Of a stretch of DNA of 60,535 bases, positions 7,781 through 57,280 are shown one piece after another. Source of the stretch: a virus; the IMG/VR virus record IMGVR_UViG_3300045988_170019, positions 1 through 60,535 of that record, one strand, 5' to 3'. Within the stretch, counting starts at the first letter, position 1. The number at the start of each line of letters is the position of its first letter. The notes under the pieces are model-generated. The model ran no database searches and was not told where the DNA came from. It worked only from the letters and a program-made list of their open reading frames with translations. The position numbers and the translations under genes were made by a program.

Positions 7781-7786
7781 TTTTTC

Positions 7787-7810
7787 GTTATAGAATCTGA
7801 TAATTACGCG
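7787..7810 (-). promoter_or_regulatory. Promoter-motif copy (CGCG-N14-TAWAAT)
   Basis: Minus strand: CGCGTAATTATCAGATTCTATAAC then GAAAAA. Overlaps the stop of the polymerase gene. Confidence 0.45.
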
Positions 7811-10800: not shown

Positions 10801-11763
10801 AAGTTCAAAGTCCATCTTTTTGACAGCTTCATTGTATTTTCGTACCGGAACCTTGTTGCCAGTTGGCGTAACATCAATTAGTCTTCGGATAATACCCGAT
10901 TTTGCATCACTGATTCGTACCGGCTTATTGGTGCCCATAAACAAAAAAGACCGAAATCGATTTGAATACGCAGATTTAAACTTCTCGTTTACAGTCATCA
11001 ATTCATGTGAAACAAGAGAATTTAGTCTTGTATTATCCTCAATCCGGCTCAAATCTCCATCGTGCTGAATAGCAACCAATGGGTTTTGCTTAAAAGATTC
11101 CAGTGCAAACGCATTATTAGGATTTCCCAGCGCTTTTGCATCGAATACCGAGTAATAGCCATCAAACAATTTTTGAATCAGATTTAGTACCGTTGACTTA
11201 CCAGAACCTGGAGGACCATATAGTACCTCAAATTTCTGGATATTTTTCGAATCTCCAGTAACAATTGCTCCAATCGCCCATTCAAGTTTTTTGCGTTCTT
11301 CTGGAGAATACAAAACACTCATTAGGCTGTCATATGCAGAAATATCACCTTCTTCAATCGGATAGTTTAATTTCTTTGTAGCATAATCGGATTTTTTAAT
11401 TTCCTCGTTAGCAAATATCACCCGTTCGTCAAGCATCTGGTAGTTATCCCGGCATTGTCGCTGGCAGTATTTGTGCCATGCATCGATGCTGCCGGTTCTT
11501 GCATTCCACATCCACTTGACGGCGATTTTATCTTCTGGATGCCGTTTTTCTACTTTATCGTATTCATTCTGAAGTTCAGCATCCACCATATTAATAACAT
11601 CTTCTTCGTCCGCAGACCATAGGCCACGTTCCTCAACCCAGACAGCATAAAAATCGCTGCCTCGAATCATAAGATCTTTGGAACGTTTGATTACAAATAT
11701 TGGATATACTTCCCACTCGCCTTTTTTGATCTGCTGAGACGTAACTCTCAGAAAATCAAGCAT
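7804..11763 (-). CDS. SF3 helicase / AEP primase-polymerase / family-B DNA polymerase fusion (1319 aa)
   Basis: SF3 helicase: aa183-190 GPPGSGKS, AIQHDGD, FMGTN. AEP primase: aa513-518 VIDFDL, aa548-556 SGKGIHLHY. PolB: aa711-715 YDVEV (ExoI), NNRDYD (ExoII), YCDNDV (ExoIII), DVASMHPHS (motif A), KIVINAVYG (motif B), IKTDS (motif C). Confidence 0.85.
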   Translation of the reverse strand: MLDFLRVTSQQIKKGEWEVYPIFVIKRSKDLMIRGSDFYAVWVEERGLWSADEEDVINMVDAELQNEYDKVEKRHPEDKIAVKWMWNARTGSIDAWHKYCQRQCRDNYQMLDERVIFANEEIKKSDYATKKLNYPIEEGDISAYDSLMSVLYSPEERKKLEWAIGAIVTGDSKNIQKFEVLYGPPGSGKSTVLNLIQKLFDGYYSVFDAKALGNPNNAFALESFKQNPLVAIQHDGDLSRIEDNTRLNSLVSHELMTVNEKFKSAYSNRFRSFLFMGTNKPVRISDAKSGIIRRLIDVTPTGNKVPVRKYNEAVKKMDFELGAIAWHCKQIYLEDPEYYDDYVPINMMGASNDFFNFVEDSFYVFNRENCTTLKTAWEMYNQYCDEARVSYPYPKRQFKEELKNYFKDYEERHQNEDGSMTQGYYYNFDGNKFNVTIVKDGGRKAEKDLPTEKNWIELTEQHSILDDILADCPAQYATPDDKPMSKWTNVTTKLRDLNPHRLHYVKLPDAHHIVIDFDLKDESGFKSFEKNLVAASKWPKTYAETSKSGKGIHLHYIYSGDPTKLSRIYDDDIEVKVYTGNASLRRMLTKCNDLPIATISSGLPLKGDDKMLDMNVVTTEKGIRTTIKRNLAKEIHPNTTPSIQHIKHILDKAYAQGVHYDVTDLRPDIQAFALSSTHQANACIALVNEMHFKSDEPAETVPWEEAPIAFYDVEVFPNLFLVNYKVAGDGKKVIRMINPKPAEIEQMITHYRLVGFNNRDYDNHMIYACMIGYTPEQIYELSRKIIVDKSPNAKFGEAYNLSYTDIYDFAKKKQSLKKWEIALGIHHQELGLPWDQPVPEDLWPKVAEYCDNDVLATEALFNYEKIQDDFHARCSLAKISNGTPNDTNNQLTGKLIFQGDKNPQKEFVYTNFATGMSYKMGDSVGVYHEWNHFPGYEFANGKSTYRGDILGEGGKVYADYGIWYNLKTFDVASMHPHSIIALNLFGDRYTARFKELVDVRIAIKHRDKAALQTLFGGAFAEYADASDDELKNLAGALKIVINAVYGLTAAHFPNLFRDERNVDNIVAKRGALFMTELKYQLEQKGIHVVHIKTDSIKIDNPSPETEAFIIEFGKKYGYDFEVESEYKKMCLVNDAVYVAYTKDNKWTATGTQFAVPYVFKTLFSKEPIEFKDLCETKNVTAGDIFLDMNEGYPEVANLEKEAAKIKKAGKEIPKELLDDIAKGHNLKFVGRVGQFCPIKEGCGGGILYRVQNGKNYAVTGTTGYRWLESEMVRAFKKEDCIDKRYYQKLVDDAIEAIDKYGDANCFMCVDGNCDSDIIA

Positions 11764-13460: not shown

Positions 13461-14387
13461 TTAAATCATGTCGATAATCGGGCCATCAACATTAAAGTCA
13501 AGCAGAATAGAACGTTCGGCACCATTCACAAAGTCACGATTTGCCTTGCGATAACCGTTATAAATACCGAAATCAATAAAGCCATCACACTTCGGCTTCT
13601 TCGGGTCATAAATCCAGCCTACAATCTGACCTTCACGAGTGCGGTCAATACCCAGGCAATCATAAACATCATTCAGGAACAAATAACCCTGAGCTTTCAA
13701 TTTATTATTGCAGTAATTCTGCTGATTGGTCAGGAACAACAAGTTGTAATCGGCAGATTTTTCCCAGTTGGGGTTGTACTCGTCAAAGAATTTGGCATAC
13801 GGAGACCAATTATTGTCAAAGGTTTCCACCAATTTCTTTTCCGTTACCTCCTCACCTTTGTCGTTTGTAGTCTTTTCCTCAATTTCTTCAAGCTTTAGAC
13901 CATATTTAAATTTCTTATCGGCAGCCTCGCCGAGTTCTTTCACGACATTGGCACGATAGTTCTTAAACTCATCACTTACTGCGCAATAAGCACCAACAAG
14001 AGCAATGTGGCGCTTACGCAGGATATTGTGACCAACGCAAATCAGCGCAATAGAAGCAGCACCAACTGCAATACTCGGGCCATAAAGCTTACCGAGTTTT
14101 ACGGCAGTCTGACCAATCAGAATTGCTTTATCCTTCTGAGCATCCTCTTCGCTGTAACGGTCAGCGTAAGTCGGATCAAGAGCAGTGGACTTAATCATGT
14201 CCATTTTATCGTTTGCATCGGTAATGATTTCTTCAACTTTCAGAGTTGCTTTGCATGCCATAACAGCAGCACCAATGCCACAGCCAATACCGGCAATCAC
14301 CATAATTTCAGGGGACGCTTTTTTAACTTTCAGGCCGGTAACTTTAGCGGTGCGCATTACATTTTCAAAAATATTAGCGATTTTCAT
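13461..14387 (-). CDS. membrane protein, paralog A of a 3-member family
   Basis: N-terminal TM pair (IMVIAGIGCGIGAAVMACKAT / SIAVGAASIALICVG) and overall similarity to 16455..17216 and 17765..18523. Confidence 0.6.
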   Translation of the reverse strand: MKIANIFENVMRTAKVTGLKVKKASPEIMVIAGIGCGIGAAVMACKATLKVEEIITDANDKMDMIKSTALDPTYADRYSEEDAQKDKAILIGQTAVKLGKLYGPSIAVGAASIALICVGHNILRKRHIALVGAYCAVSDEFKNYRANVVKELGEAADKKFKYGLKLEEIEEKTTNDKGEEVTEKKLVETFDNNWSPYAKFFDEYNPNWEKSADYNLLFLTNQQNYCNNKLKAQGYLFLNDVYDCLGIDRTREGQIVGWIYDPKKPKCDGFIDFGIYNGYRKANRDFVNGAERSILLDFNVDGPIIDMI

Positions 14388-14631
14388 TTGTGTCATACTC
14401 CTTTACAAAGATGTCTTTTTTATCGTTTAAACTCAGCAGATGATTCAAATACCAAATGGCTTTCTTGATGTCTTCCTCGCCATTTTTGTGTTTTGCCCTG
14501 ACAATATACTTCAGTGCATTCCCTATATCAAATGCCGCTACTCCACTGTATTCCTTCGACACCGCAGCAATAATGTCGATTGCTTCCATCCCATTAAGCT
14601 GATAATGGTCAGGATGATTCACATGTTCCAA
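14374..14631 (-). CDS. DUF3310-like phage protein (85 aa)
   Basis: The pattern HPDHY..G.EAIDII......F..GNALKYI.RA..K......KA.WYL matches my recollection of that family. Confidence 0.45.
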   Translation of the reverse strand: MEHVNHPDHYQLNGMEAIDIIAAVSKEYSGVAAFDIGNALKYIVRAKHKNGEEDIKKAIWYLNHLLSLNDKKDIFVKEYDTNENR

Positions 14632-16063: not shown

Positions 16064-16105
16064 AAAAAAGAAAAAAAGGAAACCCTATGTTTCCATAGAA
16101 TTTCC
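16064..16105 (-). terminator. intrinsic terminator, conserved CTATGGAAACATAG-type hairpin
   Basis: Minus strand: GGAAATTCTATG-GAAA-CATAGGGTTTCC followed by a long T-run. Confidence 0.65.
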
Positions 16106-16120
16106 TTTTGAGTATTCCAA

Positions 16121-16381
16121 TTATTCTTCAGGTTCTTCCTCCTCAGATTCTTCAACAATTTCAGTCTCTTTCCAAGGGAATCGTCCAGAGTGATGTCCGT
16201 CTTTTTGTTTCAGTTTCCTCAAAGCCTCCTTGCCCTTATTAAAAGCAAATCGTCCAATTGTAATACCACCGACAATCGCCAAACCAAGCACAACGAGACC
16301 AGATTTATCATCATTCTTTTCTTCCGTAACCGGAGCAGTCTCTTCAACGATTTCCTCGTTCATAACCTTGTTTTCATCCAT
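16121..16381 (-). CDS. single-pass membrane protein with acidic termini (86 aa)
   Basis: TM helix LVVLGLAIVGGITIG. C-terminus is EESEEEEPEE. Confidence 0.55.
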   Translation of the reverse strand: MDENKVMNEEIVEETAPVTEEKNDDKSGLVVLGLAIVGGITIGRFAFNKGKEALRKLKQKDGHHSGRFPWKETEIVEESEEEEPEE

Positions 16382-16425
16382 AGTAATAATCTCCTTTTAT
16401 AAAAATAATTTTGGATTTTTACTCC

Positions 16426-16449
16426 ATTAAATGGGCTGAATATTTCGCG
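16426..16449 (-). promoter_or_regulatory. Promoter-motif copy (CGCG-N14-TAWAAT)
   Basis: Minus strand: CGCGAAATATTCAGCCCATTTAAT then GGAG. Confidence 0.5.
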
Positions 16450-16454
16450 TATTG

Positions 16455-17216
16455 TTAAAAATTGTCATAGTTGTAGTCAGGACCGTTTGCGTAACTGACT
16501 ACAAGACACGGTTCGTCATTAAGGTCTTTTGCAATTCCGGTAGAAATATCAACCTTCATCAACCCGCCAAAATTAAAGGACCACCCAAGGTCTTCGCCAA
16601 TAGGTAGCTCTTCCAGCCCCAATTCTGTACAGAAAGTGTTAAAGCTGGCTTGACCTTCCGTATTAAGGATGGAATTCACTTCGTTTTCGGCTTTTTTAAT
16701 TGTGTTGACAGAAGACCGAAAATATCTCCCGCTCACAACTTCATAGCACAGCGTGTTGCCACCGGTCGTTGAGATAATCTCTTGTTTTGAAGGAGGATTA
16801 TTCTCAATTTTCTTAGCTGCTACCGTATCCTTAATTTTTTCAAATTGCTTTGGCGTTGTGAGTTCTTCAGCTGTTTCTTTAAAATCCTTCAAATTAGCTT
16901 CAGACAGTGCGTAAGCAGCAACCAATGCAGCATGTCGATGAATGCTCATGCTATTCGCACCAATCAGGCAAATAGTGGAAAGTGCTGCTGTAATAAACGC
17001 CGGTGCATAAACCTTTAAACCGGACTTTACAATTTCAATCTTTTCCGGTTTTCCTGTTTCATATAAAGATTTTCGGACCAATTCGTATTTGGGCGTTGCT
17101 TTATAAACTAGATATCCACTTGTCCAGAATCCGCAAATACCAGCAACCGTCAGGATTGTCGGCATATTTTTCTCCACTTTTTTAGAAAGATTTTTGAGCA
17201 TTGTTTTGCAATTCAT
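16455..17216 (-). CDS. membrane protein, paralog B of a 3-member family
   Basis: Shares TM pair, LCYE..SGRYF.S and LGL...IGEDLGW blocks with 17765..18523 (LCYDCLSGQKFKS, LGLNMVKMGDSIGW). Confidence 0.6.
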   Translation of the reverse strand: MNCKTMLKNLSKKVEKNMPTILTVAGICGFWTSGYLVYKATPKYELVRKSLYETGKPEKIEIVKSGLKVYAPAFITAALSTICLIGANSMSIHRHAALVAAYALSEANLKDFKETAEELTTPKQFEKIKDTVAAKKIENNPPSKQEIISTTGGNTLCYEVVSGRYFRSSVNTIKKAENEVNSILNTEGQASFNTFCTELGLEELPIGEDLGWSFNFGGLMKVDISTGIAKDLNDEPCLVVSYANGPDYNYDNF

Positions 17217-17229
17217 ATCGTTCTCCTTT

Positions 17230-17262
17230 AAAAAGAAAAAAGAGAAAGGGCTTGTTCAGCCC
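17230..17262 (-). terminator. intrinsic terminator
   Basis: Minus strand: GGGCTGAACAAGCCC followed by TTTCTCTTTTTTCTTTTT. Confidence 0.6.
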
Positions 17263-17417
17263 TCGCTCTGTTTATTGAGTTCGTTAAACTTCTTTTCAAC
17301 CAAATCGTTTACTCGTTCTTCCTCCTCCTTTTCATCGATAAATGTCTGCGCTGCTTCCAGCAACAAACCGCCGATAGTTAGGACTCCGCCAAGAATTTTC
17401 AATGTACCAAGTTTCAT
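17256..17417 (-). CDS. small single-pass membrane protein with acidic tail (53 aa, below cutoff)
   Basis: MKLGTLKILGGVLTIGGLLLEAAQTFIDEKEEEER... AAAGGAGTGA SD, own promoter motif and own terminator. Confidence 0.5.
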   Translation of the reverse strand: MKLGTLKILGGVLTIGGLLLEAAQTFIDEKEEEERVNDLVEKKFNELNKQSEG

Positions 17418-17433
17418 TAAAGTCACTCCTTTC

Positions 17434-17457
17434 ACTTAAGGACGTGTTTATTTCGCG
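17434..17457 (-). promoter_or_regulatory. Promoter-motif copy (CGCG-N14-TAWAAT)
   Basis: Minus strand: CGCGAAATAAACACGTCCTTAAGT then GAAAGGAG. Overlaps the NAK* end of the upstream gene. Confidence 0.5.
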
Positions 17458-17777
17458 TTAAGATTTTTATATTTTTTCACACAATATTCTGATGCAAACC
17501 AATCTTCGTTAAAAGGCTCAAATCCGTGCTTTTTCTTAAAATATCTACAAATTGAATTCCATTTCATATTCTGATTTGCGAGAATCTTAATAAAATTCGT
17601 GCTCATACCGTGGTTCATTTCTTTTGCGATATGAATTGCTTCACGGTCCAAATCCTCTGCCAAATTTTGTCCAATTTCGTTCAGCGCTTCCGGTTTATCG
17701 GTGTATCGGCAAGCATCTATCACAGCACTCATATATTTGGCATAATATTCTTTTGATGTCATACTTAATAATCCCAC
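17448..17777 (-). CDS. hypothetical protein (109 aa)
   Basis: Track ORF. 13-nt overlap with the upstream paralog C gene. Confidence 0.55.
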   Translation of the reverse strand: MGLLSMTSKEYYAKYMSAVIDACRYTDKPEALNEIGQNLAEDLDREAIHIAKEMNHGMSTNFIKILANQNMKWNSICRYFKKKHGFEPFNEDWFASEYCVKKYKNLNAK

Positions 17778-18523
17778 TCCATTTTCGGTCTCGGTGTCAC
17801 CTTATAGTCCATCACAAGAATTGGCCGCCCATTATCATCCAGCTGACCAGAAAAACTCAAATCAAGCAGATGGTCAACGGTCCAACCAATCGAATCCCCC
17901 ATTTTTACCATGTTCAGTCCAAGCTGAGAGTAAAATTCGTTCTGGCTTGCAAATCCATCGCCGGAAACAATACACTGATTGATGTCATTCTGAATCCGGC
18001 GAATTGTTTCGCGGTCTGATTTGAATTTTTGCCCGCTCAAACAGTCATAGCACAAAATATCACCGTCTCCGGCCATGATTACATCGTTTTGGCGTACAGG
18101 ATTTTCCTTCGCTACTTTCATTGCACTCTGGTCAACGACCTTCTGTTCATCATCACCAAGAATGGTTTCAGTTGCTTCTCGATAACGCTTAAATGCACTC
18201 TCGCTCAAAGCATATGCACTTGCAATTCCAGCCAGGCGTTTTGCGCTAATTCGGTTCGATGCTACAATGCAGGCAACAGATGCTGCGGTCATTGTAACCG
18301 TTGGAATATAGAGCTTCCACGTTTCTTTTACAACATCGAGTTTTGTCTCAGGTTCTTTTTCTCTCACAATCTCGCAAGCTTTAATCGTAGCTTTTCCACA
18401 CATAACAACACTGCCGATTGCACCTGCTGCCCCACAAATTGTCAAAATCATAGGGGCATTTTTTACGATAGCTTTTTCGGCAATTTTACTAGCAGCTTTG
18501 ATAGAAGCCATATTGAATTTCAT
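17765..18523 (-). CDS. membrane protein, paralog C of a 3-member family
   Basis: See paralogs A and B. AAAGGAGAATATTATC SD. Confidence 0.6.
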   Translation of the reverse strand: MKFNMASIKAASKIAEKAIVKNAPMILTICGAAGAIGSVVMCGKATIKACEIVREKEPETKLDVVKETWKLYIPTVTMTAASVACIVASNRISAKRLAGIASAYALSESAFKRYREATETILGDDEQKVVDQSAMKVAKENPVRQNDVIMAGDGDILCYDCLSGQKFKSDRETIRRIQNDINQCIVSGDGFASQNEFYSQLGLNMVKMGDSIGWTVDHLLDLSFSGQLDDNGRPILVMDYKVTPRPKMEWDY

Positions 18524-18542
18524 GATAATATTCTCCTTTTTA

Positions 18543-18576
18543 TAAAAAGTAAGACCCTATGTTTCCATAGAGTCTT
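18543..18576 (-). terminator. intrinsic terminator, conserved CTATGGAAACATAG hairpin
   Basis: Minus strand: AAGACTCTATG-GAAA-CATAGGGTCTT then ACTTTTTAT. Confidence 0.65.
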
Positions 18577-18586
18577 AAAATAAACC

Positions 18587-18823
18587 TTAGCTTTCTTTAG
18601 ATTCGTCTTCTACTTCTTCAAGACTTGCACAGTTGTTCGGGTCATAAATGATGGTTTCTTCGTCCTCGTCAACCGCTTTATGTCGATTCAGCAGTGCGCC
18701 GGCACAAACACCAGCAAGCAATGCTCCAATCACGATAAAACCAGTTTTACCAAAAGACTTCTTTTTCATTTCATCTTTCTCCTCGCAATCTTCTTCAATT
18801 TTCTTGATTACTTCAGTAGCCAT
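18587..18823 (-). CDS. single-pass membrane protein with acidic termini (78 aa)
   Basis: Start moved to the ATG after AAGGAG. TM helix GFIVIGALLAGVCAGALL. Confidence 0.55.
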   Translation of the reverse strand: MATEVIKKIEEDCEEKDEMKKKSFGKTGFIVIGALLAGVCAGALLNRHKAVDEDEETIIYDPNNCASLEEVEDESKES

Positions 18824-18856
18824 AACATAATCTCCTTTCAAATTGTTAAGGTTTCC

Positions 18857-18880
18857 ATTATATAGCTTGATTATTTCGCG
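18857..18880 (-). promoter_or_regulatory. Promoter-motif copy (CGCG-N14-TAWAAT)
   Basis: Minus strand: CGCGAAATAATCAAGCTATATAAT then GGAAAC. Confidence 0.55.
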
Positions 18881-18914
18881 TAAAAAAAATAAGAGCTATG
18901 CAAGCACCTGAATT

Positions 18915-18953
18915 AGAAAATATAAAAGAAAGAGCCTACGTTATTGCAGACTC
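18915..18953 (-). terminator. intrinsic terminator (hairpin-family variant)
   Basis: Minus strand: GAGTCTGC-AATAAC-GTAGGCTC then TTTCTTTTATATTTT. Confidence 0.5.
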
Positions 18954-18965
18954 AATCTTCGAAGG

Positions 18966-19139
18966 TCACTTCTTCATTTTATTTTCGATAGAATATTTGA
19001 TTTGATTCGCTTTTGTAGCTACCATTTGCCGAACCTCTGGAATGGACAGAGCTGCAATTGCTGTGGATACCACAGGGATTACAATTTGCCCAAGCCAAAG
19101 ACGTGCTTCACGACTAGCTTCAATACGTTTATAACTCAT
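18966..19139 (-). CDS. small membrane protein (57 aa)
   Basis: Start moved to the ATG after TAGGAGG. TM helix LGQIVIPVVSTAIAAL. Confidence 0.5.
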   Translation of the reverse strand: MSYKRIEASREARLWLGQIVIPVVSTAIAALSIPEVRQMVATKANQIKYSIENKMKK

Positions 19140-19168
19140 AATAAATAACCTCCTAAATTTCATTCTTC

Positions 19169-19192
19169 ACTATAGGAGCTGATTATTTCGCG
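19169..19192 (-). promoter_or_regulatory. Promoter-motif copy (CGCG-N14-TAWAAT)
   Basis: Minus strand: CGCGAAATAATCAGCTCCTATAGT then GAAG. Confidence 0.55.
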
Positions 19193-19194
19193 CC

Positions 19195-19226
19195 AAAAAG
19201 AAAAGACTCTGCGAACAGCAAAGTCT
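19195..19226 (-). terminator. intrinsic terminator
   Basis: Minus strand: AGACTTTGC-TGTTC-GCAGAGTCT then TTTCTTTTT. Abuts the next promoter motif. Confidence 0.55.
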
Positions 19227-19247
19227 AATCTTTTTCTAACTGGTTTC

Positions 19248-19370
19248 TTAGAAAATCCACCGCAGGAAATTTCGAATCGCGTTTAACACCCATTTGGCAC
19301 CACAAATAAATGCACCAAACAGAGCGATCAAACCCAATGCAAAAATCACCATAATCAGTAAAAATTCCAT
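19248..19370 (-). CDS. hydrophobic micro-protein (40 aa, below cutoff)
   Basis: MEFLLIMVIFALGLIALFGAFICGAKWVLNAIRNFLRWIF. TATAGGAGG SD, own promoter and own terminator. Confidence 0.45.
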   Translation of the reverse strand: MEFLLIMVIFALGLIALFGAFICGAKWVLNAIRNFLRWIF

Positions 19371-19397
19371 AAGTATAACCTCCTATAATTAGTTTTC

Positions 19398-19421
19398 ATC
19401 ATAGGCAATGATTATTTCGCG
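19398..19421 (-). promoter_or_regulatory. Promoter-motif copy (CGCG-N14-TAWAAT)
   Basis: Minus strand: CGCGAAATAATCATTGCCTATGAT then GAAAAC. Confidence 0.55.
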
Positions 19422-19423
19422 TG

Positions 19424-19456
19424 TAAAAAGCAAGAGCCTATGTTTCCATAAGCTCT
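19424..19456 (-). terminator. intrinsic terminator, conserved hairpin family
   Basis: Minus strand: AGAGCTTATG-GAAA-CATAGGCTCT then TGCTTTTTAC. Confidence 0.6.
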
Positions 19457-19462
19457 ATATTT

Positions 19463-19522
19463 TTAGCAGGGGCCAATCCCCATTAGAAGCACCGCACACG
19501 TTACAATAATCATAATAGACAT
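19463..19522 (-). CDS. 19-aa hydrophobic peptide with dedicated promoter, SD and terminator
   Basis: MSIMIIVTCAVLLMGIGPC. TAGGAGG SD 7 nt upstream. Promoter motif at 19566-19589, terminator at 19424-19456. Confidence 0.35.
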   Translation of the reverse strand: MSIMIIVTCAVLLMGIGPC

Positions 19523-19565
19523 AAGTAGTCCTCCTATATATTAAAACCGTGTAGTTTTATTCTTC

Positions 19566-19589
19566 ATTATAGGAGCTGAATTTTTCGCG
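19566..19589 (-). promoter_or_regulatory. Promoter-motif copy (CGCG-N14-TAWAAT)
   Basis: Minus strand: CGCGAAAAATTCAGCTCCTATAAT then GAAG. Confidence 0.55.
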
Positions 19590-19599
19590 TGTTTTGTTG

Positions 19600-20001
19600 T
19601 CAGATATCTTTTCGGTCAAATACCGTTTCCCATCGTTCCTTTCTCATTGGTTTCATTCTAAGTGCCCACATAAGCTGCCGAACATTTACCGTTGGGTATA
19701 AGCCGCTTTGTTCTATTCCACTCATTTGATTGAAATACTTTTTGAATCCGGGCTGAATGTAGATCTCATCAATAAGCCATGGATCAATTTCAGTCCAATA
19801 AGTGGTCTTCGTTTCAGGGTTAAACCGCTGCTGAATCACCGCTAAACCGTAATCTTTTATTTTATAAAGAGTACATTTTGAGTATAATGGATGATTACAG
19901 GCATAGGTCTTTGCAAACATTGCTTTCCAAAAGTCTGGTTTCTCGTAATAATATCTCATAGTAAATAAAAAATCCCCCTGAACATTTTGCTCAGAGGGCA
20001 T
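19600..20001 (-). CDS. hypothetical protein (up to 133 aa; start uncertain)
   Basis: Track ORF. The first 14 codons overlap a hairpin plus T-run (CCCTCTGA..TCAGGGGG ATTTTTT), so the true start may be Met15 at 19959. Confidence 0.5.
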   Translation of the reverse strand: MPSEQNVQGDFLFTMRYYYEKPDFWKAMFAKTYACNHPLYSKCTLYKIKDYGLAVIQQRFNPETKTTYWTEIDPWLIDEIYIQPGFKKYFNQMSGIEQSGLYPTVNVRQLMWALRMKPMRKERWETVFDRKDI

Positions 20002-20013
20002 AGCGTGAAGTGT

Positions 20014-20865
20014 TTAATTGTTTGTGCTCAATTCCAGTAGCTTCTTGTTAATGTCTAGTTGTGCATTGATATAATATGTCGATTCCGCATCGTTCATGTT
20101 TCCATCATCAAGTGCATCAAACTTATCGCTTACTTCGGATAGTTTGGAAATGTAATCCGTGTAACTTTTCAGCATTTCCGCATCAGGAGAATCGTCGGCC
20201 TGATATTTCTCTATGAATTCTACATATGCATCCATAAACTCCATGTAAGAATCTACAGCCTCTTTAAATTCAGGCCGCATACCATCAACAAGCTCCTCAT
20301 CGTTGGTATCCGAAACCGCCGTATCTGTTGATTCGGTAGAAGTGGCATCCTCGTCCTTATCCCAATTTTTAGAGTTGGAATCAGAATCGATAGAATCCAC
20401 TTGAATCGAGATTTCATAATTTGATGCAAAATAATACAAAGTTAATTCTGTTTCCACATCATCATATGCTCTATAATAGGTATCCGTTTTTTCATAATCA
20501 TTTTGATACCCTGCGTCTCGGCACGCTTTGATGTATGCTTTAAAATCAGATTTAGTAACCTTTCCTATAGTGCAATAGAATTCATCCTCAGATTCATAGC
20601 CCAAACTTCCCCATGTGCTTTTTGGAGTAGGCAATGTTCCACCAATGCCAAATTCTGGCCACTCAAAGTCTTCATAATAATCTGGATACTCAATCGTGCT
20701 GAAGTCAACCACTTCTTCCTCTTCAGACGAACTATCCGCTTCTTCAGAAATCGAGCTAGATGCAGTGTTACTGGTGGTATCTTTTTTCTCTTCTTTTACC
20801 ATAGAACATCCAGACAACGCAATGCAAATAGCCAGAGATGCACTAATCCATGCTAGTTTTTTCAT
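20014..20865 (-). CDS. acidic lipoprotein (283 aa)
   Basis: Signal peptide plus lipobox (LAICIALSGC). Ser/Asp/Glu-rich linkers. Confidence 0.6.
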   Translation of the reverse strand: MKKLAWISASLAICIALSGCSMVKEEKKDTTSNTASSSISEEADSSSEEEEVVDFSTIEYPDYYEDFEWPEFGIGGTLPTPKSTWGSLGYESEDEFYCTIGKVTKSDFKAYIKACRDAGYQNDYEKTDTYYRAYDDVETELTLYYFASNYEISIQVDSIDSDSNSKNWDKDEDATSTESTDTAVSDTNDEELVDGMRPEFKEAVDSYMEFMDAYVEFIEKYQADDSPDAEMLKSYTDYISKLSEVSDKFDALDDGNMNDAESTYYINAQLDINKKLLELSTNN

Positions 20866-20914
20866 TTTCGTACTCCTTTCACCTTAGGGAACTCCTTATC
20901 ATTTAGTATACACC

Positions 20915-20965
20915 GTCAAAAGGAAAAGCTCAAGACTCTATGTTTCCATAAAGTCTCAAGCTTTT
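20915..20965 (-). terminator. intrinsic terminator, extended version of the conserved hairpin
   Basis: Minus strand: AAAAGCTTGAGACTTTATG-GAAA-CATAGAGTCTTGAGCTTTT then CCTTTTG. Confidence 0.65.
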
Positions 20966-20967
20966 AA

Positions 20968-21336
20968 TTACTTTTTAAATCCGATTTTCCTAATGACATT
21001 TTTCACGAAACTCGACGTGATACAATTCGTCTTTTCGAAATTCAAACCCGTAAAGAATGTAGCAAGGACAACCGCAGTATCCACAGCATACATACCAATG
21101 CGCAAACGACGATCTTTCACTCGGGCCTCAGCTTCCTCTGCGTTAGCGTAAGCTTGATTTTCTTTCTCAGCTTTCGCACAAGCAGCATCGCTTTGGGCCT
21201 TTGTGTCTTCAATTCGCACGCGGTACAGTTTGCAGACATTATCTACAGCTTCCGTACGAGCATTCCCGTCCAGATCATTTGTTCGATTAATCTCACTCAT
21301 AATCAGGTCGTTAAGTTTCGTTTCCAAAGTATCCAT
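20968..21336 (-). CDS. hypothetical protein with C-terminal TM helix (122 aa)
   Basis: Start moved to the ATG after TAAGGAGG. Confidence 0.55.
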   Translation of the reverse strand: MDTLETKLNDLIMSEINRTNDLDGNARTEAVDNVCKLYRVRIEDTKAQSDAACAKAEKENQAYANAEEAEARVKDRRLRIGMYAVDTAVVLATFFTGLNFEKTNCITSSFVKNVIRKIGFKK

Positions 21337-21361
21337 GAGAAATACCTCCTTAATAGTATTC

Positions 21362-21385
21362 ATTTAAGGGCTTGATTATTTCGCG
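21362..21385 (-). promoter_or_regulatory. Promoter-motif copy (CGCG-N14-TAWAAT)
   Basis: Minus strand: CGCGAAATAATCAAGCCCTTAAAT then GAATAC. Overlaps the DAK* end of the upstream gene. Confidence 0.55.
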
Positions 21386-21642
21386 TCACCATAATTTTGT
21401 ACTTTAACTGTAAGAAAAACGTTTTCGCCATCCTGCAAATTATCCATAGGGCCTAATGATTCGAGCCAGACGGTCGTATCGCCATCCCGTACGTCAATTC
21501 TGAGATAGCCCGCAATTTTTGTTTTCACTTTGCCATAGTACCAGCCGCCAACAAACCCGATTAGAAAAAATAGTACCAAACCAATACAAATTGCACCGTA
21601 CATTAGCATTCTCCTTTTATTTGTGTTTTTCAGAAAATCCAT
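21376..21642 (-). CDS. single-pass membrane protein (88 aa)
   Basis: TM helix LMYGAICIGLVLFFLIGFVGGWYY. No clear SD at this ATG. Confidence 0.45.
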   Translation of the reverse strand: MDFLKNTNKRRMLMYGAICIGLVLFFLIGFVGGWYYGKVKTKIAGYLRIDVRDGDTTVWLESLGPMDNLQDGENVFLTVKVQNYGDAK

Positions 21643-21697
21643 CCGGGGAATTTTTCAGATATCAATATACATCTCCTTTCCGTCACCTGCGTCATGA

Positions 21698-21735
21698 AAA
21701 TAAAAAGAAAGACCCTATGTTTCCATAGAGCCTTT
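21698..21735 (-). terminator. intrinsic terminator, conserved hairpin family
   Basis: Minus strand: AAAGGCTCTATG-GAAA-CATAGGGTCTTT then CTTTTTATTTT. Confidence 0.65.
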
Positions 21736-21776
21736 ATCTTACTACGTATTTACGAACTTATTAATGTTTGTTTCTT

Positions 21777-21956
21777 CTATTTTTTATTAAATTTTCCTTT
21801 AATTACATACCAAGCCATCATGTTATATCCCATTTTCTCAAGGAATGTTAGATTGTCATAATTATCTTGCGTTCCTTTCTTAAAAGCTGAGTTCCACATC
21901 ATAGCTCCAATAAATCCAATCGGAAAACATACGAAATTTCTAATTTTCAGTAACAT
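21777..21956 (-). CDS. small protein (59 aa, below cutoff)
   Basis: MLLKIRNFVCFPIGFIGAMMWNSAF... AAAGGAGATTTTAT SD, own promoter and own terminator. Confidence 0.45.
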   Translation of the reverse strand: MLLKIRNFVCFPIGFIGAMMWNSAFKKGTQDNYDNLTFLEKMGYNMMAWYVIKGKFNKK

Positions 21957-21988
21957 ATAAAATCTCCTTTCGTAAGCATATAGCTTTC

Positions 21989-22012
21989 ATTTAAGAAGAT
22001 GTTATTTTCGCG
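21989..22012 (-). promoter_or_regulatory. Promoter-motif copy (CGCG-N14-TAWAAT)
   Basis: Minus strand: CGCGAAAATAACATCTTCTTAAAT then GAAAGC. Confidence 0.5.
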
Positions 22013-22048
22013 TAAAAAGAAAAGACTCCATGTTTCCACAGAGCCTTC
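22013..22048 (-). terminator. intrinsic terminator, conserved hairpin family (G-U wobble variant)
   Basis: Minus strand: AAGGCTCTGTG-GAAA-CATGGAGTCTT then TTCTTTTTAC. Confidence 0.55.
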
Positions 22049-22053
22049 TTATT

Positions 22054-22248
22054 TCATACAAGCTTTTTCAGATAAGTCGTCAATCCGTCAAATCTTTTGG
22101 TTTCAACGTTTAGTAACCAAGCAGCAACTTTGTCTTTTACCAAATGCTGGTTAAATGCAAACATAATCAGCTTTTGTGTAATCAGAGAACTGTAAATTGC
22201 ATACTTAATCATAAATACCTCAATTTTTCTTTCAAAAGTATTTAACAT
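22054..22248 (-). CDS. hypothetical protein (64 aa)
   Basis: Track ORF with an AAAGGAGATTAAATT SD. Confidence 0.5.
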   Translation of the reverse strand: MLNTFERKIEVFMIKYAIYSSLITQKLIMFAFNQHLVKDKVAAWLLNVETKRFDGLTTYLKKLV

Positions 22249-22284
22249 AATTTAATCTCCTTTCAAATTCAGCTTATAGCTTTC

Positions 22285-22308
22285 ATTTAAGTGGATGATT
22301 ATTTCGCG
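22285..22308 (-). promoter_or_regulatory. Promoter-motif copy (CGCG-N14-TAWAAT)
   Basis: Minus strand: CGCGAAATAATCATCCACTTAAAT then GAAAGC. Confidence 0.5.
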
Positions 22309-22338
22309 AGAAAACGAAGAGGGTATGTTTCAACCCTC
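22309..22338 (-). terminator. weak terminator-like hairpin
   Basis: Minus strand: GAGGGT-TGAAACAT-ACCCTC then TTCGTTTTCT. The stem includes the stop codon of 22330..22533. Confidence 0.35.
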
Positions 22339-22533
22339 AATACCAAAGATATCATTAAATTTTTGAAGATTTCTTCTTGCGTCAATAATTTTCATTGCCA
22401 AAGCAATGCTTCTATGATGTCCTATCCATATTGCTATCTCGTAAGTTTCAATAGCATATCTCACATCATATTGAAGTTTAATTCTAGTGGCATTAATTTT
22501 ATCTTCGTCAAGAATATAAATCTTTCGTTTCAT
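22330..22533 (-). CDS. hypothetical protein (67 aa)
   Basis: Track ORF with a TGGAGGTGATG SD. Confidence 0.5.
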   Translation of the reverse strand: MKRKIYILDEDKINATRIKLQYDVRYAIETYEIAIWIGHHRSIALAMKIIDARRNLQKFNDIFGIEG

Positions 22534-22547
22534 TTAACATCACCTCC

Positions 22548-22571
22548 ATTATATCCAATGTTATTTTCGCG
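22548..22571 (-). promoter_or_regulatory. Promoter-motif copy (CGCG-N14-TAWAAT)
   Basis: Minus strand: CGCGAAAATAACATTGGATATAAT then GGAGG. Overlaps the ARK* end of the upstream gene. Confidence 0.55.
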
Positions 22572-22980
22572 CATTACTCAAAAGCCAGAAAAACTTCCGG
22601 TAACTCTCGTAGTAATAGTCTTTAGAACAAGGAATATCATATTTGGTCCGCAGCGTAGAATAAGACACTTCCTCCGTAACCGCTTTAAAGATATAATCCG
22701 ATAGTTCGGGATCGGCTTCTTTGCAAAGAGATTTAACCAGACTCATCCTCTCAAAGTAATACATCTTCGCTTCGGTCAATCGTTCGGTCGCATCGCTAAT
22801 CGCCGTGCTCTTTACCCCTGTCAAATTCATGCGTGAACTTTTCTGGTATCCGTCAATTGACCGGTATTCTGTCAGCCACTCAGAGTATTGCAAACAAAAA
22901 TGCTTTAACTCATAATACCGGTGCCTCGAAATCCAATATCGATTCTTCCTGCTCAAATTTGATCGAATGCTTGTGCCCAT
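22561..22980 (-). CDS. putative phage transcription regulator (RinA/ArpU / sigma-70 region-4-like)
   Basis: The blocks RYYELKHFCLQYSEW and the C-terminal YSTLRTKYDIPCSKDYYYESYRKFFWLLS resemble small sigma-like phage activators. Start moved to the ATG after TGGAGGTAAC. Confidence 0.35.
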   Translation of the reverse strand: MGTSIRSNLSRKNRYWISRHRYYELKHFCLQYSEWLTEYRSIDGYQKSSRMNLTGVKSTAISDATERLTEAKMYYFERMSLVKSLCKEADPELSDYIFKAVTEEVSYSTLRTKYDIPCSKDYYYESYRKFFWLLSNARK

Positions 22981-23018
22981 AGTAGTTACCTCCAAAATCT
23001 AATTTAAGATAGTAACTC

Positions 23019-23045: not shown

Positions 23046-24032
23046 TTAGTGATTTCTGGGTTTATACTTCATATTTTCCAAAGGACTATGGGAAGCGTAC
23101 ATTTCCATCAAATCATCTTCATTAATATCCAAATAGGCTTTTTCGGTAATCACAACACTACTGTGGCCTAAAATCCGGCTGAGGGTATAAATATCACCGC
23201 CGCTTTTCAAGAATCGTTTTGCAAAATTATTCCTGAACATATGCGGATGAACGTTTTTGAGTCCAACCCGTGCTGCGTATTTTCTTATATTAGCTTCTAA
23301 ATTATTAACTTGCAAAGCCTTTCCTTGATTCGTGCAAAACAGATAATCACTTTCGCGGTATCGGTCCTTATAGGTAATCCATCTCTTAATTGTCTTTTCC
23401 ATTTGTGCCGAAAAGAATACGTATCGATCTTTCTTGCCTTTTGTATTTTCGGCTGGAAGCAAAATCGCATTTTTTCTAAAGTCAATGTCTTCCATTTTGA
23501 TTAGCAAGCATTCCCCGCACCGCATACCTGTATCAATTAAAAGTTGAATGATAACCCAATCTCGGTATTCAAAGAACTTGTCCCGCTGTAGGCAGTCCAG
23601 TAGCATTTTAAAGTCTTCGTCGTCGATAAACTCAACTTCTTTTCTTTTTGTCTTAATAAAGTCGCTTCGCTTGATTGGGTTTTTTCGCAAAAATTCTTCT
23701 TCTATACACCAATTAAAGAATGCGTTCAGATTTCGTAAATAATTGTTAATACAACAAGCAGAAATCGGTTTGCCTAAATCTTTTCTATTCTCTGGATAAT
23801 TGGGTTGCGTTTGATTCTTGACCGTGCAAATCGTGTATTTTCCTCTTCGCACAAGACTGTCCAGATAATTACTTATATCCACATGTCGAATGTCTTCCGT
23901 ATTCTTTATTCCGATTGTTTCCAAATACATTCCAAACATTCGTAGGGTTTGATCGTAACTATGCAAAGTCCTTTGCGCTAGTCCTTTACGGTCACAATAA
24001 CTCATATAAGTCTCGACATCACGTGAATACAT
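23046..24032 (-). CDS. int: tyrosine recombinase / phage integrase
   Basis: C-terminal catalytic region: DTGMRCGE (R), HPHMFRNNFA (H.xR), LGHSSVVITEKAYL (H...Y). Start moved to the ATG after TAGGAGG (MYSRDVETY...). Confidence 0.85.
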   Translation of the reverse strand: MYSRDVETYMSYCDRKGLAQRTLHSYDQTLRMFGMYLETIGIKNTEDIRHVDISNYLDSLVRRGKYTICTVKNQTQPNYPENRKDLGKPISACCINNYLRNLNAFFNWCIEEEFLRKNPIKRSDFIKTKRKEVEFIDDEDFKMLLDCLQRDKFFEYRDWVIIQLLIDTGMRCGECLLIKMEDIDFRKNAILLPAENTKGKKDRYVFFSAQMEKTIKRWITYKDRYRESDYLFCTNQGKALQVNNLEANIRKYAARVGLKNVHPHMFRNNFAKRFLKSGGDIYTLSRILGHSSVVITEKAYLDINEDDLMEMYASHSPLENMKYKPRNH

Positions 24033-24146
24033 AATAAAAAACCTCCTATATTTACTGAGCACCAGAACCCAATAAATATAAAAGGTTTGTAGGCTTAGAC
24101 TCGGATTGTTCATAGGTTCGTTTTCGCAAAACCAGGCTAATTCACA

Positions 24147-24329: not shown

Positions 24330-24467
24330 ATCAGGTTAAATTCTCATAACGCAGATCGTACTATTACCGGTCTAAATCTCAAACTTTTTATAACGTATTC
24401 GTAGGTTTAGTGCTCAATTATTGATAGGTTTATTATACCACAATTCGCAAATTTTACAACATGTTTC

Positions 24468-24479: not shown

Positions 24480-24580
24480 GAAAAAATAAAAGTCCATGTA
24501 ATAATTGCGTCAAGCGTTATCTGTGGGTTCCTCAATTTATAAGGGAATATCACCCAACGCAATATTACATGGACCTAAGT

Positions 24581-56186: not shown

Positions 56187-56187
56187 C

Positions 56188-57212: not shown

Positions 57213-57239
57213 AAAAATTAGCTCTCCTTTAAAAAATTC

Positions 57240-57255: not shown

Positions 57256-57280
57256 CGATTTTATATTAATATATACCAAT

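Follow-up and report, generated by a model that had tools for sequence, protein, structure and literature searches.

A rigidly spaced promoter-like motif in a phage genome and a phage-encoded RNA polymerase homolog that may read it

In phage T4, the MotA box lies just upstream of the promoter hexamer at a fixed distance, and in mycobacteriophage L5 the stoperators are asymmetric, numerous and laid out in a single orientation. Phage RNA polymerases that serve promoters of their own have also been described. The P23-45 enzyme gp64 recognises promoters of its own and uses them to transcribe early and middle genes (PMC10770324), and for YonO a single promoter serves a long late operon (PMC5467207).

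The window discussed here is the whole 60,535-nucleotide stretch of IMG/VR virus record IMGVR_UViG_3300045988_170019, in which an initial annotation had described 17 copies of a promoter-like motif and proposed that a dedicated phage-encoded factor reads them. Such a reader appears, from sequence comparison, to be the best explanation of the motif.

Motif copies and their genomic setting

All 17 copies were found where the initial annotation had placed them, each on the minus strand.

200-223, minus strand: motif copy (CGCGAGAATTACA-TATCA-TATAAT(GAAA)) heading a non-coding stretch, not an ORF
4069-4092, minus strand: motif copy overlapping the helicase stop codon (gene at 4083-5312)
7787-7810, minus strand: motif copy overlapping the primase/polymerase stop codon; hairpin and T-run (7784-7757) directly after
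16426-16449, minus strand: motif copy at the head of a long unit toward the primase/polymerase gene
17434-17457, minus strand: motif copy overlapping the upstream stop codon; ribosome-binding site abuts the hexamer, ATG 16 nt on
18857-18880, minus strand: motif copy, exact match to the initial consensus
19169-19192, minus strand: motif copy adjoining the downstream side of terminator-like hairpin 19226-19204
19398-19421, minus strand: motif copy adjoining the downstream side of terminator-like hairpin 19456-19433
19566-19589, minus strand: motif copy, exact match to the initial consensus
21362-21385, minus strand: motif copy; overlaps the ORF 21376-21642 stop codon
21989-22012, minus strand: motif copy adjoining the downstream side of terminator-like hairpin 22049-22020
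22285-22308, minus strand: motif copy adjoining the downstream side of terminator-like hairpin 22338-22319
22548-22571, minus strand: motif copy, exact match to the initial consensus; overlaps the stop codon of a 144-aa gene
56188-56211, minus strand: variant copy at the head of the endonuclease-exonuclease-polymerase operon; hexamer TTTTAT followed by GAAGAGA
57281-57304, minus strand: copy deviating most from the others (CGCGAAATTATCT-ACTTA-GATAAT-ATTG); XRE gene downstream
60002-60025, minus strand: motif copy, ATG 21 nt past the hexamer
60406-60429, minus strand: motif copy; ribosome-binding site abuts the hexamer, ATG 16 nt on
24486-24509, minus strand: degenerate candidate copy (CGCAATTATTACA-TGGAC-TTTTAT) of uncertain status; a 60-aa ORF and the integrase gene lie downstream

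The initial consensus describes the 17 copies only approximately, as each lies within 0-2 mismatches of it but just three match it exactly. Conservation extends over 28 nt, CGCGAAAWWWWCA-nnYCM-TWTAAT-GAAR, with C1, G2, C3, G4, A7 and C12 invariant and A13 and G25 each present in 16 of 17 copies. As had been claimed, the spacing is constant across all copies, the bases where a -35 element would sit are not conserved (<0.5 bit per base), and positions 16-18 read YCC, not the TGn of an extended -10.

Both a mismatch search with shuffles and a position weight matrix (PWM) scan placed the motif far above chance. With up to three mismatches allowed, the window held 19 matches against 1.78 +/- 1.38 expected, a number reached by none of 100 shuffled controls; the two additional matches, each with three mismatches (30331-30354, minus strand; 60342-60365, plus strand), look like chance. 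The PWM, made from the motif copies and used with a cut-off of 15 bits, returned 17 sites on the minus strand and none on the plus strand, the runner-up candidates scoring at most 10.8 bits.

The ends of the window overlap by 55 nt, leaving 60,480 unique bases, and the assembly is therefore circular. Thus, the two motif clusters form one contiguous arc, from 22571 through position 1 to 56188, which spans 26.9 kb of early and middle genes on the 60,480-bp circle. The late operon has no motif copies.

Within this arc the motif is placed after terminator-like hairpins and before the SD-ATG, which is where a promoter must be. The start codon follows the end of the hexamer by 14-67 nt, so that the 15-60 nt given initially was near the mark. 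Five copies do reach into the preceding gene, overlapping the stop codons of ORFs that end at 4083, 7804, 17448, 21376 and 22561. In the copies at 22548, 4069, 17434 and 60406, hexamer and ribosome-binding site are separated by 0-3 nt; at 22548-22571, a GGAGG site runs from the first base past the hexamer with the ATG 14 nt on, and at 4069-4092 the site GAAAGGAG abuts the hexamer with the ATG 17 nt on. The copy at 200-223 indeed lacks a downstream ORF, and is followed instead by a structured stretch in which the first 12 nt past the hexamer pair with the 12 nt preceding a U9 run.

1-199, continuing across the circular junction to 60476, minus strand: predicted non-coding RNA of ~204 nt, from copy 200-223

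Conservation and candidate readers

Comparison with related phages, which the initial annotation had suggested as a check, recovered the same architecture and spacing, C(G/A)C(G/A)-N7-CA-N5-TATAAT-like-Pu over 28 nt, in every polymerase-bearing relative examined (Faecalibacterium, Arthrobacter, Gordonia, Streptomyces and Lactococcus phages, gut contigs and prophages), with 8-14 copies per genome, nearly all on the coding strand. FP_oengus carries 13-14 copies, Arthrobacter phage Circum 9, Gordonia phage Tanis 12-13, Streptomyces phage Rima 13 and Lactococcus phage CHPC971 ~11. Among 76 sites from six phages, C12 and a purine at position 25 occur in all 76, A13 in 74, and C1 and T24 in 73 each. 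Similarly, the strict pattern is found in 68 of 80 IMG/VR loci, with none on the opposite strand, and 27 bacterial-genome loci gave 62 matches on the polymerase strand versus 1 on the other. The motif is AT-rich throughout phage genomes of 34-60% GC, and no matches came from FP_Brigit, phiC31 or Tuc2009, unrelated phages that infect the same genera as the relatives. Judged by these comparisons, the motif follows the phage lineage and not the host. This phage (integrase at 23046-24113) and FP_oengus are temperate; most motif-bearing relatives are lytic actinophages with no annotated integrase.

Because the motif is conserved in phages of both Actinobacteria and Firmicutes, its reader should be conserved too. 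Three candidates had been named initially, of which the polymerase homolog is present in every relative and the other two fail this comparison. Among five relatives, only FP_oengus has a counterpart of the 144-aa protein (22561-22995), which had been described as sigma-region-4-like and has no match to a sigma or HTH family; the XRE protein (56769-57212) occurs in none of the five. Among the non-structural genes common to all relatives, that of the 934-aa polymerase homolog alone has transcription-related or DNA-binding domains.

52392-55196, minus strand: 934-aa single-chain RNA polymerase homolog, proposed reader of the motif
55199-55849, minus strand: Cas4/RecB-like exonuclease, co-oriented, immediately upstream of the polymerase gene
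55815-56120, minus strand: endonuclease, co-oriented, upstream of the polymerase gene
56133-56187, minus strand: polymerase operon leader; hairpin (5' arm is the conserved GAAGAGA start), then T-run

The 934-aa protein retains an intact and invariant GADFDGD catalytic loop (residues 530-536), and has two N-terminal HTHs (~residues 45-120) and a C-terminal sigma-70-region-4-like HTH (~residues 897-934), where HTH_23 and Sigma70_r4_2 match over Pfam cut-offs. It matches PHROG 4291 over its full length, and Koert et al. reported an HHpred value of 95.7% to the RdRP family. Its structure model is poor (mean pLDDT 59.8, pTM 0.35); a Foldseek search with it ranked RDR2, Rpb1 and beta' at the top, with no fold match at E <= 0.001.

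Synteny of the endonuclease-exonuclease-polymerase trio holds throughout the actinophage and FP_oengus relatives examined. The copy at 56188-56211 is the best conserved among relatives and always lies ~0.9-1.0 kb upstream of the polymerase gene. Further, the leader layout of hairpin and T-run is common to 17 of 19 diverse relatives, and the stem starts 1-4 nt past the hexamer in 17 of the 19. Full-length homologs of the primase/polymerase (252) and of the polymerase (250) come from essentially the same records; there is no relative without the polymerase, and co-occurrence therefore cannot separate it from other lineage-wide genes. No clean pattern of covariation was found linking HTH residues to promoter bases.

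Proposed promoter of the phage polymerase

It seems rather likely, on sequence evidence, that the motif copies serve as promoters for a single-subunit two-barrel RNA polymerase encoded by this gut phage itself, and that transcripts begin with the conserved G after the hexamer. The promoter would be a 28-nt element, from about -24 to +4, used by the 934-aa protein. The built-in HTH domain(s) would read the duplex boxes CGCG(A/T)AA (-24 to -18) and (T)ACA (-15 to -12), about one helical turn apart, DNA would open at the AT-rich hexamer (-6 to -1), and RNA would start at the conserved purine directly past it. The rigid spacing would follow from the reader and the catalytic centre sharing one polypeptide. 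The initial view of a promoter-like element stands; its placing of CGCG at -30 to -27 becomes -24 to -21 if the start abuts the hexamer.

Two promoter classes may be distinguished. A strong class, with hexamer TATAAT, TTAAAT or TATAGT and then GAAA, would head short early and middle units. A variant class, with TTTTAT, then GAAGAGAGA, then the leader hairpin and T-run, would head the endonuclease-exonuclease-polymerase operon and probably also drive, by read-through, the terminator-poor late genes downstream. If so, polymerase synthesis would be self-reinforcing. The first polymerase molecules could come from virion delivery, leaky host transcription or read-through; no convincing host-type promoter was found for the polymerase operon, which is itself headed by the motif.

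Alternative explanations and related systems

A less likely reading, and the strongest of the alternatives, is that host sigma-A RNA polymerase uses the hexamer as its -10, while a phage protein at CGCG...ACA (the 934-aa protein through its HTH domains, or some other factor) replaces the -35 contact, making the promoters activator-dependent or subject to 'sigma appropriation' as at T4 middle promoters. In the window and in actinophages, the hexamer equals or approaches the universal -10 consensus of sigma-A: TATAAT or a sequence one mismatch away is found in most copies of this phage and of the Arthrobacter, Gordonia and Streptomyces phages. At least some copies could therefore be open to host RNA polymerase. 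The conserved box directly upstream, at a fixed distance, is MotA-box-like, and expression of the early genes and the polymerase operon could begin directly upon infection, with no pre-existing phage polymerase. However, the motif is not what sigma-A needs, as noted initially: the -35 is missing, the '-11 A' needed by sigma-70-family factors is often absent, and ribosome-binding sites come directly after the hexamer. An A occupies the '-11' position in 10 of 17 copies here, 55 of 76 family-wide and 0 of 13 in FP_oengus, so that it is missing from seven copies in the window, from every FP_oengus copy (CTTTAT) and from the conserved polymerase-operon copy (TTTTAT). A start 6-8 nt past the hexamer would cut the ribosome-binding site from the mRNA in 4-5 copies, the bases just past the hexamer (Pu-R-A) are conserved as in an initially transcribed sequence, and the motif sequence is kept across hosts from two phyla. 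Sigma-70-type sites showed no enrichment anywhere in the window. Moreover, the sole conserved candidate activator has an intact polymerase catalytic loop. Since the sequence context puts the start directly past the hexamer and GADFDGD is intact, the TATAAT-like block probably does not serve as a sigma -10 in any sense, and transcription is probably carried out by the polymerase homolog itself, not by host RNA polymerase with the homolog as accessory factor.

It is quite improbable that the motif is an operator at which a phage repressor silences the early region of the prophage over ordinary promoters, by analogy with the stoperators of L5. The temperate lifestyle of this phage and FP_oengus, the many asymmetric sites in one orientation and the XRE-type gene adjoining two copies would suit it, whereas the mostly lytic relatives and the absence of the XRE protein from the five relatives compared would not. 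Further, the conserved block takes in the hexamer and following bases at fixed spacing, the short gaps between terminator and ribosome-binding site hold nothing else promoter-like, and the late operon lacks copies although stoperators occur there too. Least credible is an RNA-level 5'-UTR signal for processing, stability or translation, resembling the start-associated sequences of Cluster K mycobacteriophages: strict strand specificity, start codons always shortly downstream and the whole short leader conserved in Gordonia and Streptomyces phages (GAGACCCCTAYGAAAGGA) would accord with it, but many copies directly follow hairpin-plus-T-run terminators, so that upstream transcripts would often stop before them, five lie partly within coding sequence, the upstream half lacks self-complementarity, and start-codon distance varies while internal spacing does not.

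The pairing of this promoter with the phage polymerase appears to be previously undescribed, and the same pair is carried by relatives infecting two bacterial phyla, Actinobacteria and Firmicutes. With its own promoters for early and middle genes, the proposed system would resemble that of P23-45 gp64, a single-subunit two-barrel polymerase, and YonO offers a precedent for a single promoter driving a long late operon.

Recurrence of the element in the window and in related phages

All genes of the window lie on the minus strand, and so do all seventeen copies of the promoter-like element described in the initial annotation, every one of which was recovered with the consensus proposed there and with 0-2 mismatches. 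When up to three mismatches were allowed, 19 matches were found against 1.78 +/- 1.38 expected, a number reached in no shuffle, and three copies match the consensus exactly (0.00 expected by chance). Alignment of the 17 copies revealed 28 conserved nucleotides, CGCGAAAWWWWCA-nnYCM-TWTAAT-GAAR, with zero length variation, as the claim of rigid spacing implied. C1, G2, C3, G4, A7 and C12 are invariant, and G25, the base just after the TATAAT-like hexamer (positions 19-24), is present in 16/17. A position weight matrix (PWM) derived from these copies gave 17 minus-strand matches of at least 15 bits and 0 on the plus strand, with the next-best candidates at 10.8 bits or less. Five copies do lie inside the end of the upstream open reading frame, as had been noted, and overlap its stop codon (ORF ends 4083, 7804, 17448, 21376 and 22561).

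The two ends of the window (1-55 and 60481-60535) are identical over 55 nt, so the assembly is circular and has 60,480 unique bases. The two clusters of copies are therefore parts of one contiguous 26.9-kb arc that starts at 22571, passes position 1 and stops at 56188. The late genes and the integrase gene had been described as free of the element; this holds for the remaining 33.6 kb as far as true copies are concerned, but one degenerate candidate is present at 24486-24509 (-). Adjoining it, at 24432-24459 (-), is a good host-type extended -10 candidate (TTGTAA-16-TG-TATAAT), with a 60-aa ORF and then the integrase gene downstream; the lysogeny genes may thus be those left to host RNA polymerase.

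The gene order of the window is that of FP_oengus and, circularly permuted, that of a large group of Arthrobacter, Gordonia, Streptomyces, Rhodococcus, Microbacterium and Curtobacterium phages together with 1706-like Lactococcus phages. Koert et al. (bioRxiv 10.1101/842583) have described this group as an Actinobacteria/Firmicutes 'supercluster'. The common order begins with small early genes, DUF6353 paralogs, primase/polymerase and helicase, and continues with endonuclease, Cas4-like exonuclease, a large helix-turn-helix (HTH) protein, terminase and structural genes. The 1319-aa protein (7804-11763), whose closest sequenced relative is in Faecalibacterium phage FP_oengus (56% identity), was dropped as a candidate RNA polymerase since it is a DNA primase/polymerase-helicase. 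A search for near-identical DNA among sequenced phages found none; prophage relatives occur in Lachnospiraceae, Ruminococcus, Oscillospiraceae and other Clostridia, the best match being only 62% identical. The DUF6353 family is kept in all relatives examined, and its three paralogous members in the window are:

13461-14396, minus strand, DUF6353 protein
16455-17216, minus strand, DUF6353 protein
17765-18523, minus strand, DUF6353 protein

Just after the large HTH protein gene, which encodes an RNA polymerase homolog of 934 aa, and a small conserved gene comes an intergenic stretch of 295 bp (51764-52059) that contains G-run and C-run repeats. In actinophage relatives the physical genome ends lie at the matching place, so this stretch may be a cos/pac region.

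The initial annotation had called for enrichment and fixed spacing to be sought in related phages, and the element recurs in all five that were compared, with identical spacing and with copies in matching syntenic places.

Form of the element in five related phages (phage; number of copies; sequence)
FP_oengus; 13-14 copies; CGCGAAAAAWWCA-N5-CTTTAT-GGAR
Arthrobacter phage Circum; 9 copies; CGCGTAAATTACA-N5-TATAAT-GA
Gordonia phage Tanis; 12-13 copies; CGCAGAAATTACA-CGTCC-TATAAT-GAGACCCCTAYGAAAGGA
Streptomyces phage Rima; 13 copies; CGCAWRWWTTACA-NGNCC-TATART-GAGACC
Lactococcus phage CHPC971; about 11 copies; CACAWGTTTTACA-N5-TATAGT-AGAAAG

With the PWM and with lineage-specific patterns, the non-coding strand of these five phages proved free of copies; a looser generic pattern matched the opposite strand once in Circum and once in the window. 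Among 76 sites from the six phages, C12 occurs in 76/76, A13 in 74, C1 and T24 in 73 each and T21 in 72, and position 25 is always a purine. In Tanis and Rima the entire leader is conserved (GAGACCCCTAYGAAAGGA, 6-8 nt and ATG, in this order), so that promoter, 5' UTR and ribosome-binding site form a repeated cassette of ~50 nt.

Similar results were obtained with larger sets of sequences. The strict pattern was found in 68 of 80 IMG/VR loci whose polymerase is 55-99% identical to that of the window, with 0 matches on the opposite strand, and nearly every one of the 80 has a copy reading CGCGAAAAAWACA-TNCYC-TTTTAT-GARG ~0.9-1.0 kb upstream of the polymerase gene, in a position that is syntenic with 56211-56188 of the window. 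In 27 loci from bacterial genomes, 62 matches have the orientation of the polymerase gene and a single one has the opposite orientation. In 119 IMG/VR fragments retrieved by the motif alone, a supercluster marker gene is present in 83, matches are divided 238 vs 0 by strand, and none of the fragments has copies on both strands. A strand-specific, multi-copy motif thus co-occurs with the phage polymerase gene, and no close relative lacks that gene: relatives without it were sought in the phage collection and none was found, the full-length primase/polymerase and polymerase homologs belonging to the same records. Since polymerase-less relatives were not available, unrelated phages of the same host genera served as the comparison set, and the motif is absent from FP_Brigit, phiC31 and Tuc2009, and also from SPbeta (40-90 kb). 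At the same time, this AT-rich sequence is kept in phage genomes of 34-60% GC. Its presence in relatives across this GC range and its absence from unrelated phages of the same hosts indicate that the motif is tracking phage lineage, not host.

Start site and recognition of the element

The observation that the element has no -35 hexamer and no TG-extended -10 was confirmed: would-be -35 positions carry less than 0.5 bit each, and positions 16-18 read YCC, not TGn. The last position of the hexamer is T in 15/17 copies. The '-11' position, where a sigma -10 would have its essential A, is A in 10/17 copies here, in 55/76 sites family-wide and in 0/13 in FP_oengus (CTTTAT); this A is likewise missing from the conserved polymerase-operon hexamer TTTTAT. 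Sigma-70-type sites are not enriched in any part of the window (36, 60, 40 and 46 found against 30.1, 53.7, 38.1 and 41.9 expected, respectively).

The three bases after the hexamer are conserved as Pu-R-A and resemble an initially transcribed sequence. In the copies beginning at 22548, 4069, 17434 and 60406, the ribosome-binding site starts 0-3 nt past the hexamer and the start codon is 14-17 nt away, so a sigma-type start 6-8 nt downstream would cut the ribosome-binding site off. Further, the leader of the polymerase operon has a stem that begins 1-4 nt past the hexamer in 17/19 diverse relatives, and in the RNA predicted from copy 200-223 (see below) the pairing likewise begins at the G next to the hexamer. 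The conserved Pu-R-A, the abutting ribosome-binding sites and the 5' stems together point to position 25 as +1. The predicted element would span -24 to +4, with the size and layout of a T7-class promoter, and we think that the hexamer is not a sigma -10.

Conservation across two phyla calls for a conserved reader, for which the options are the sigma-A holoenzyme of the host, which is universal, and a phage protein that is itself conserved. Three phage proteins had been proposed for this role:

22561-22995, minus strand, 144-aa protein
52392-55196, minus strand, 934-aa HTH-bearing RNA polymerase homolog
56769-57212, minus strand, XRE protein

Comparison with the five relatives narrowed this proposal to one of the three. 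The 144-aa protein, which has no match to a sigma or HTH family, is shared with FP_oengus only, and the XRE protein with 0/5, whereas the 934-aa protein is present in all five at 40-47% identity. Its sequence GADFDGD (G530-D536) is invariant in 24 homologs and six distant phages and corresponds to the metal-binding loop of two-barrel RNA polymerases, the DxDGD loop of the beta'-type double-psi beta-barrel. It also matches PHROG 4291 ('RNA-dependent RNA polymerase') over its full length, while the Pfam RdRP match is weak. No T7 RNAP family match was found in this protein, nor a T7-like polymerase among 26 window proteins scanned (Pfam or PHROGs), and the polymerase had no significant match in the PDB by either sequence or profile search. 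An AF2 model of low confidence (mean pLDDT 59.8) was compared by Foldseek, which ranked plant RDR2 at the top (E 9e-3, prob 0.90 and 0.98) with no match at E <=0.001; Rpb1, bacterial beta' and crAss-like phage gp66 followed, proteins of the expected kind but all weaker than E 0.001.

The C-terminal HTH of the 934-aa protein exceeds the Pfam cut-offs for HTH_23 and Sigma70_r4_2 (the latter 30.1 vs 25.7 bits), with generic HTH families scoring equal to Sigma70_r4_2. No sigma region 2 is detectable in the protein. Two more HTHs lie near its N terminus, as Koert et al. likewise found, and are preceded by the peptide HYG..R.SGRYPWGSG (residues ~17-32; window 55100-55150 (-)), which is invariant in all homologs of both phyla. 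Covariation between promoter bases and HTH residues has no statistical power, since position 4 is G or A within single genomes and CACA occurs only in the Lactococcus clade.

On this evidence, the phage polymerase probably reads the motif. The principal alternative, in which host sigma-A acts with a phage activator bound at CGCG...ACA, would account for the hexamer being so often TATAAT and would solve the start-up problem; it is possible but clearly less likely, since the FP_oengus and TTTTAT copies are poorly explained by it and the abutting ribosome-binding sites speak against it. Readings of the motif as a repressor operator or as an RNA-level signal both fit poorly with its distribution and context.

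Operons, terminators and leader RNAs

The early region (16-22.4 kb) contains 29 terminator-like hairpins against 13.5 expected. About ten early hairpins on the minus strand (16074-22338) have the common loop TATGGAAACATAGGG (the GGAAACAT-loop hairpins), with near-identical stem and loop …CTCTATGGAAACATAGGGTCTT…, and several of these directly precede a motif copy. After the hairpins 18577-18550, 17264-17246, 16109-16074 and 21735-21708, an SD-ATG follows directly with no room for a promoter, so the transcribing enzyme must read through at some rate. In the late region, terminator-like sites are below chance (13 vs 18.9) and the motif does not occur; the nearest promoter upstream is the TTTTAT variant at 56211-56188, which has a terminator before it (56277-56246) and a hairpin with a T-run after it. 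This variant would drive the endonuclease-exonuclease-polymerase operon and would also serve the late genes through read-through, an arrangement similar to that of YonO, which works from a single promoter (PMC5467207). The first polymerase molecules could possibly come from virion delivery, leaky host transcription or read-through.

The hairpin and T-run right after the polymerase-operon promoter lie at 56133-56187 (-), with the conserved GAAGAGAGA start as the 5' arm. The inner hairpin of this leader varies and the outer stem is kept in 17/19 diverse relatives; the structure could be an attenuator or a 5' stabiliser. Copy 7787-7810 is also directly followed by a terminator-like hairpin and T-run (7757-7784 (-)), ahead of a 114-aa gene (7389-7733), and a run of 16 T at 57230-57280 (-) separates the deviant copy 57281-57304 from the XRE gene.

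Copy 200-223 has no ORF downstream and is followed by a predicted RNA of ~204 nt, extending over 1-199 (-) and across the circular junction to 60476. If the G next to the hexamer is taken as its first base, the initial 12 nt of this RNA pair with the 12 nt that precede a U9 run (MFE -56.6, z -3.2). It is found only in relatives with a polymerase at least 97% identical (loci L121, L123 and L126), and an Rfam scan of the whole window, this RNA included, gave no matches.

Implications and comparison with known systems

The same protein family, HTH-containing and DxDGD-bearing, was named a putative polymerase signature gene by Koert et al., spanning Streptomyces BI, Arthrobacter, Gordonia, Rhodococcus and Lactococcus 1706-like phages and FP_oengus; promoters and transcription are absent from the text of that report (bioRxiv 10.1101/842583). 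The papers on the Arthrobacter phages and the F. prausnitzii phages mention neither promoters nor RNA polymerase. Literature searches with motif strings and for YonO-like or two-barrel actinophage polymerases found such promoters undescribed in the sources covered, most subscription journals lying outside the search. The present analysis adds the promoter motif and its proposed link to the polymerase family, that is, a candidate phage polymerase/promoter pair whose enzyme is an uncharacterised two-barrel polymerase carrying HTH domains fused in cis.

A broader and more tentative reading, which we consider possible but somewhat less likely than not to be correct in full, is that of a lineage-wide, host-independent transcription module, in which a two-barrel polymerase with cis-fused sigma-4-like HTHs uses its own 28-nt promoter in siphoviruses that infect Actinobacteria and Firmicutes, abundant phages of the human gut among them. 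The module may be kept almost base for base in both phyla. Its enzyme may drive early and middle genes and, via a variant self-activating promoter, late genes, and may ignore or read through host-type terminators. If true, such autonomy could explain both how these phages crossed phylum boundaries and why their GC content stays far below that of their hosts. Gram-positive bacteria would then have an orthogonal, T7-like expression system of their own, which could supply parts for gut bacteria too.

Polymerase/promoter pairs such as that of T7 are a known kind (N4, phiKZ, AR9 and P23-45 also belong to this functional class), but the 934-aa family, which is represented in no fewer than 250 sequenced phages and by thousands of proteins from metagenomes, has neither a characterised activity nor a known promoter. 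The motif offers a concrete 28-bp target for the purified protein. Confirmation would show in what way a minimal relative of cellular RNA polymerases can recognise promoters without sigma, a question left open by the work on YonO, and would improve annotation in hundreds of genomes that label the polymerase gene only 'helix-turn-helix DNA-binding protein'.

Several known systems resemble parts of this arrangement. L5-type stoperators are asymmetric repressor sites in early and late operons of a temperate phage; the present motif, unlike these, has no copies in the 33.6-kb late arc and is also found in lytic relatives without an annotated integrase. T4 middle promoters (MotA box, sigma-70 -10 and AsiA), the model closest to the idea in the initial annotation, are similar in that a conserved box read by a phage DNA-binding protein takes the place of the -35 and is set a short, constant distance from a hexamer resembling a -10. 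However, the T4 system needs host sigma-70 and an intact -10, whereas many of the present copies lack the '-11 A' and transcription seems to start right next to the hexamer; no MotA- or AsiA-like annotation was found among the 26 window proteins scanned (Pfam or PHROGs). Region 4 of sigma-70 and ECF sigma factors, like the C-terminal HTH of the polymerase, would bind duplex DNA upstream of the melted region, but sigma is a dissociable subunit and the HTH is covalently attached.

YonO of SPbeta is, like the present enzyme, a single chain of ~100 kDa and distant kin of multisubunit polymerases, and its gene is found directly upstream of the late structural operon. YonO transcribes this operon as one long unit starting near a non-coding RNA (PMC5467207). 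Its promoter sequence was undefined as of 2017 (PMC5467207), and a scan of SPbeta 40-90 kb, covering the YonO promoter region, found no copy of the motif. BLASTP of YonO against the 934-aa protein gave no significant alignment; the loop of YonO reads DNDGD, its C terminus carries a zinc ribbon where the 934-aa protein has HTHs, and YonO is a late-gene enzyme with a single known promoter. The closest functional precedent is gp64, the non-virion RNA polymerase of the Thermus phage P23-45 (PMC10770324). Its promoters are GC-rich and differ in sequence from those here, HTH fusion appears nowhere in the text of that paper, and a virion polymerase fused to the tape measure protein makes gp64 (PMC10770324), whereas none of that style is evident in the window. 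The 934-aa protein has no detectable sequence similarity to solved chains, gp64 entries included.

The promoters of T7, T3 and SP6, like those here, are contiguous conserved blocks of 23-28 nt with rigid internal spacing and an AT-rich end, immediately beyond which the purine at the start and the initially transcribed sequence are both conserved. They also occur in many copies in a single orientation, are served by a phage-encoded polymerase and commonly give short 5' transcript hairpins. The T7 enzyme is of the Pol I type, unlike the two-barrel enzyme with its GADFDGD loop, in which the appended HTH domains probably do the recognition. T7-type promoters serve only middle and late genes, whereas those described here lie before early and middle genes and the polymerase's own operon.
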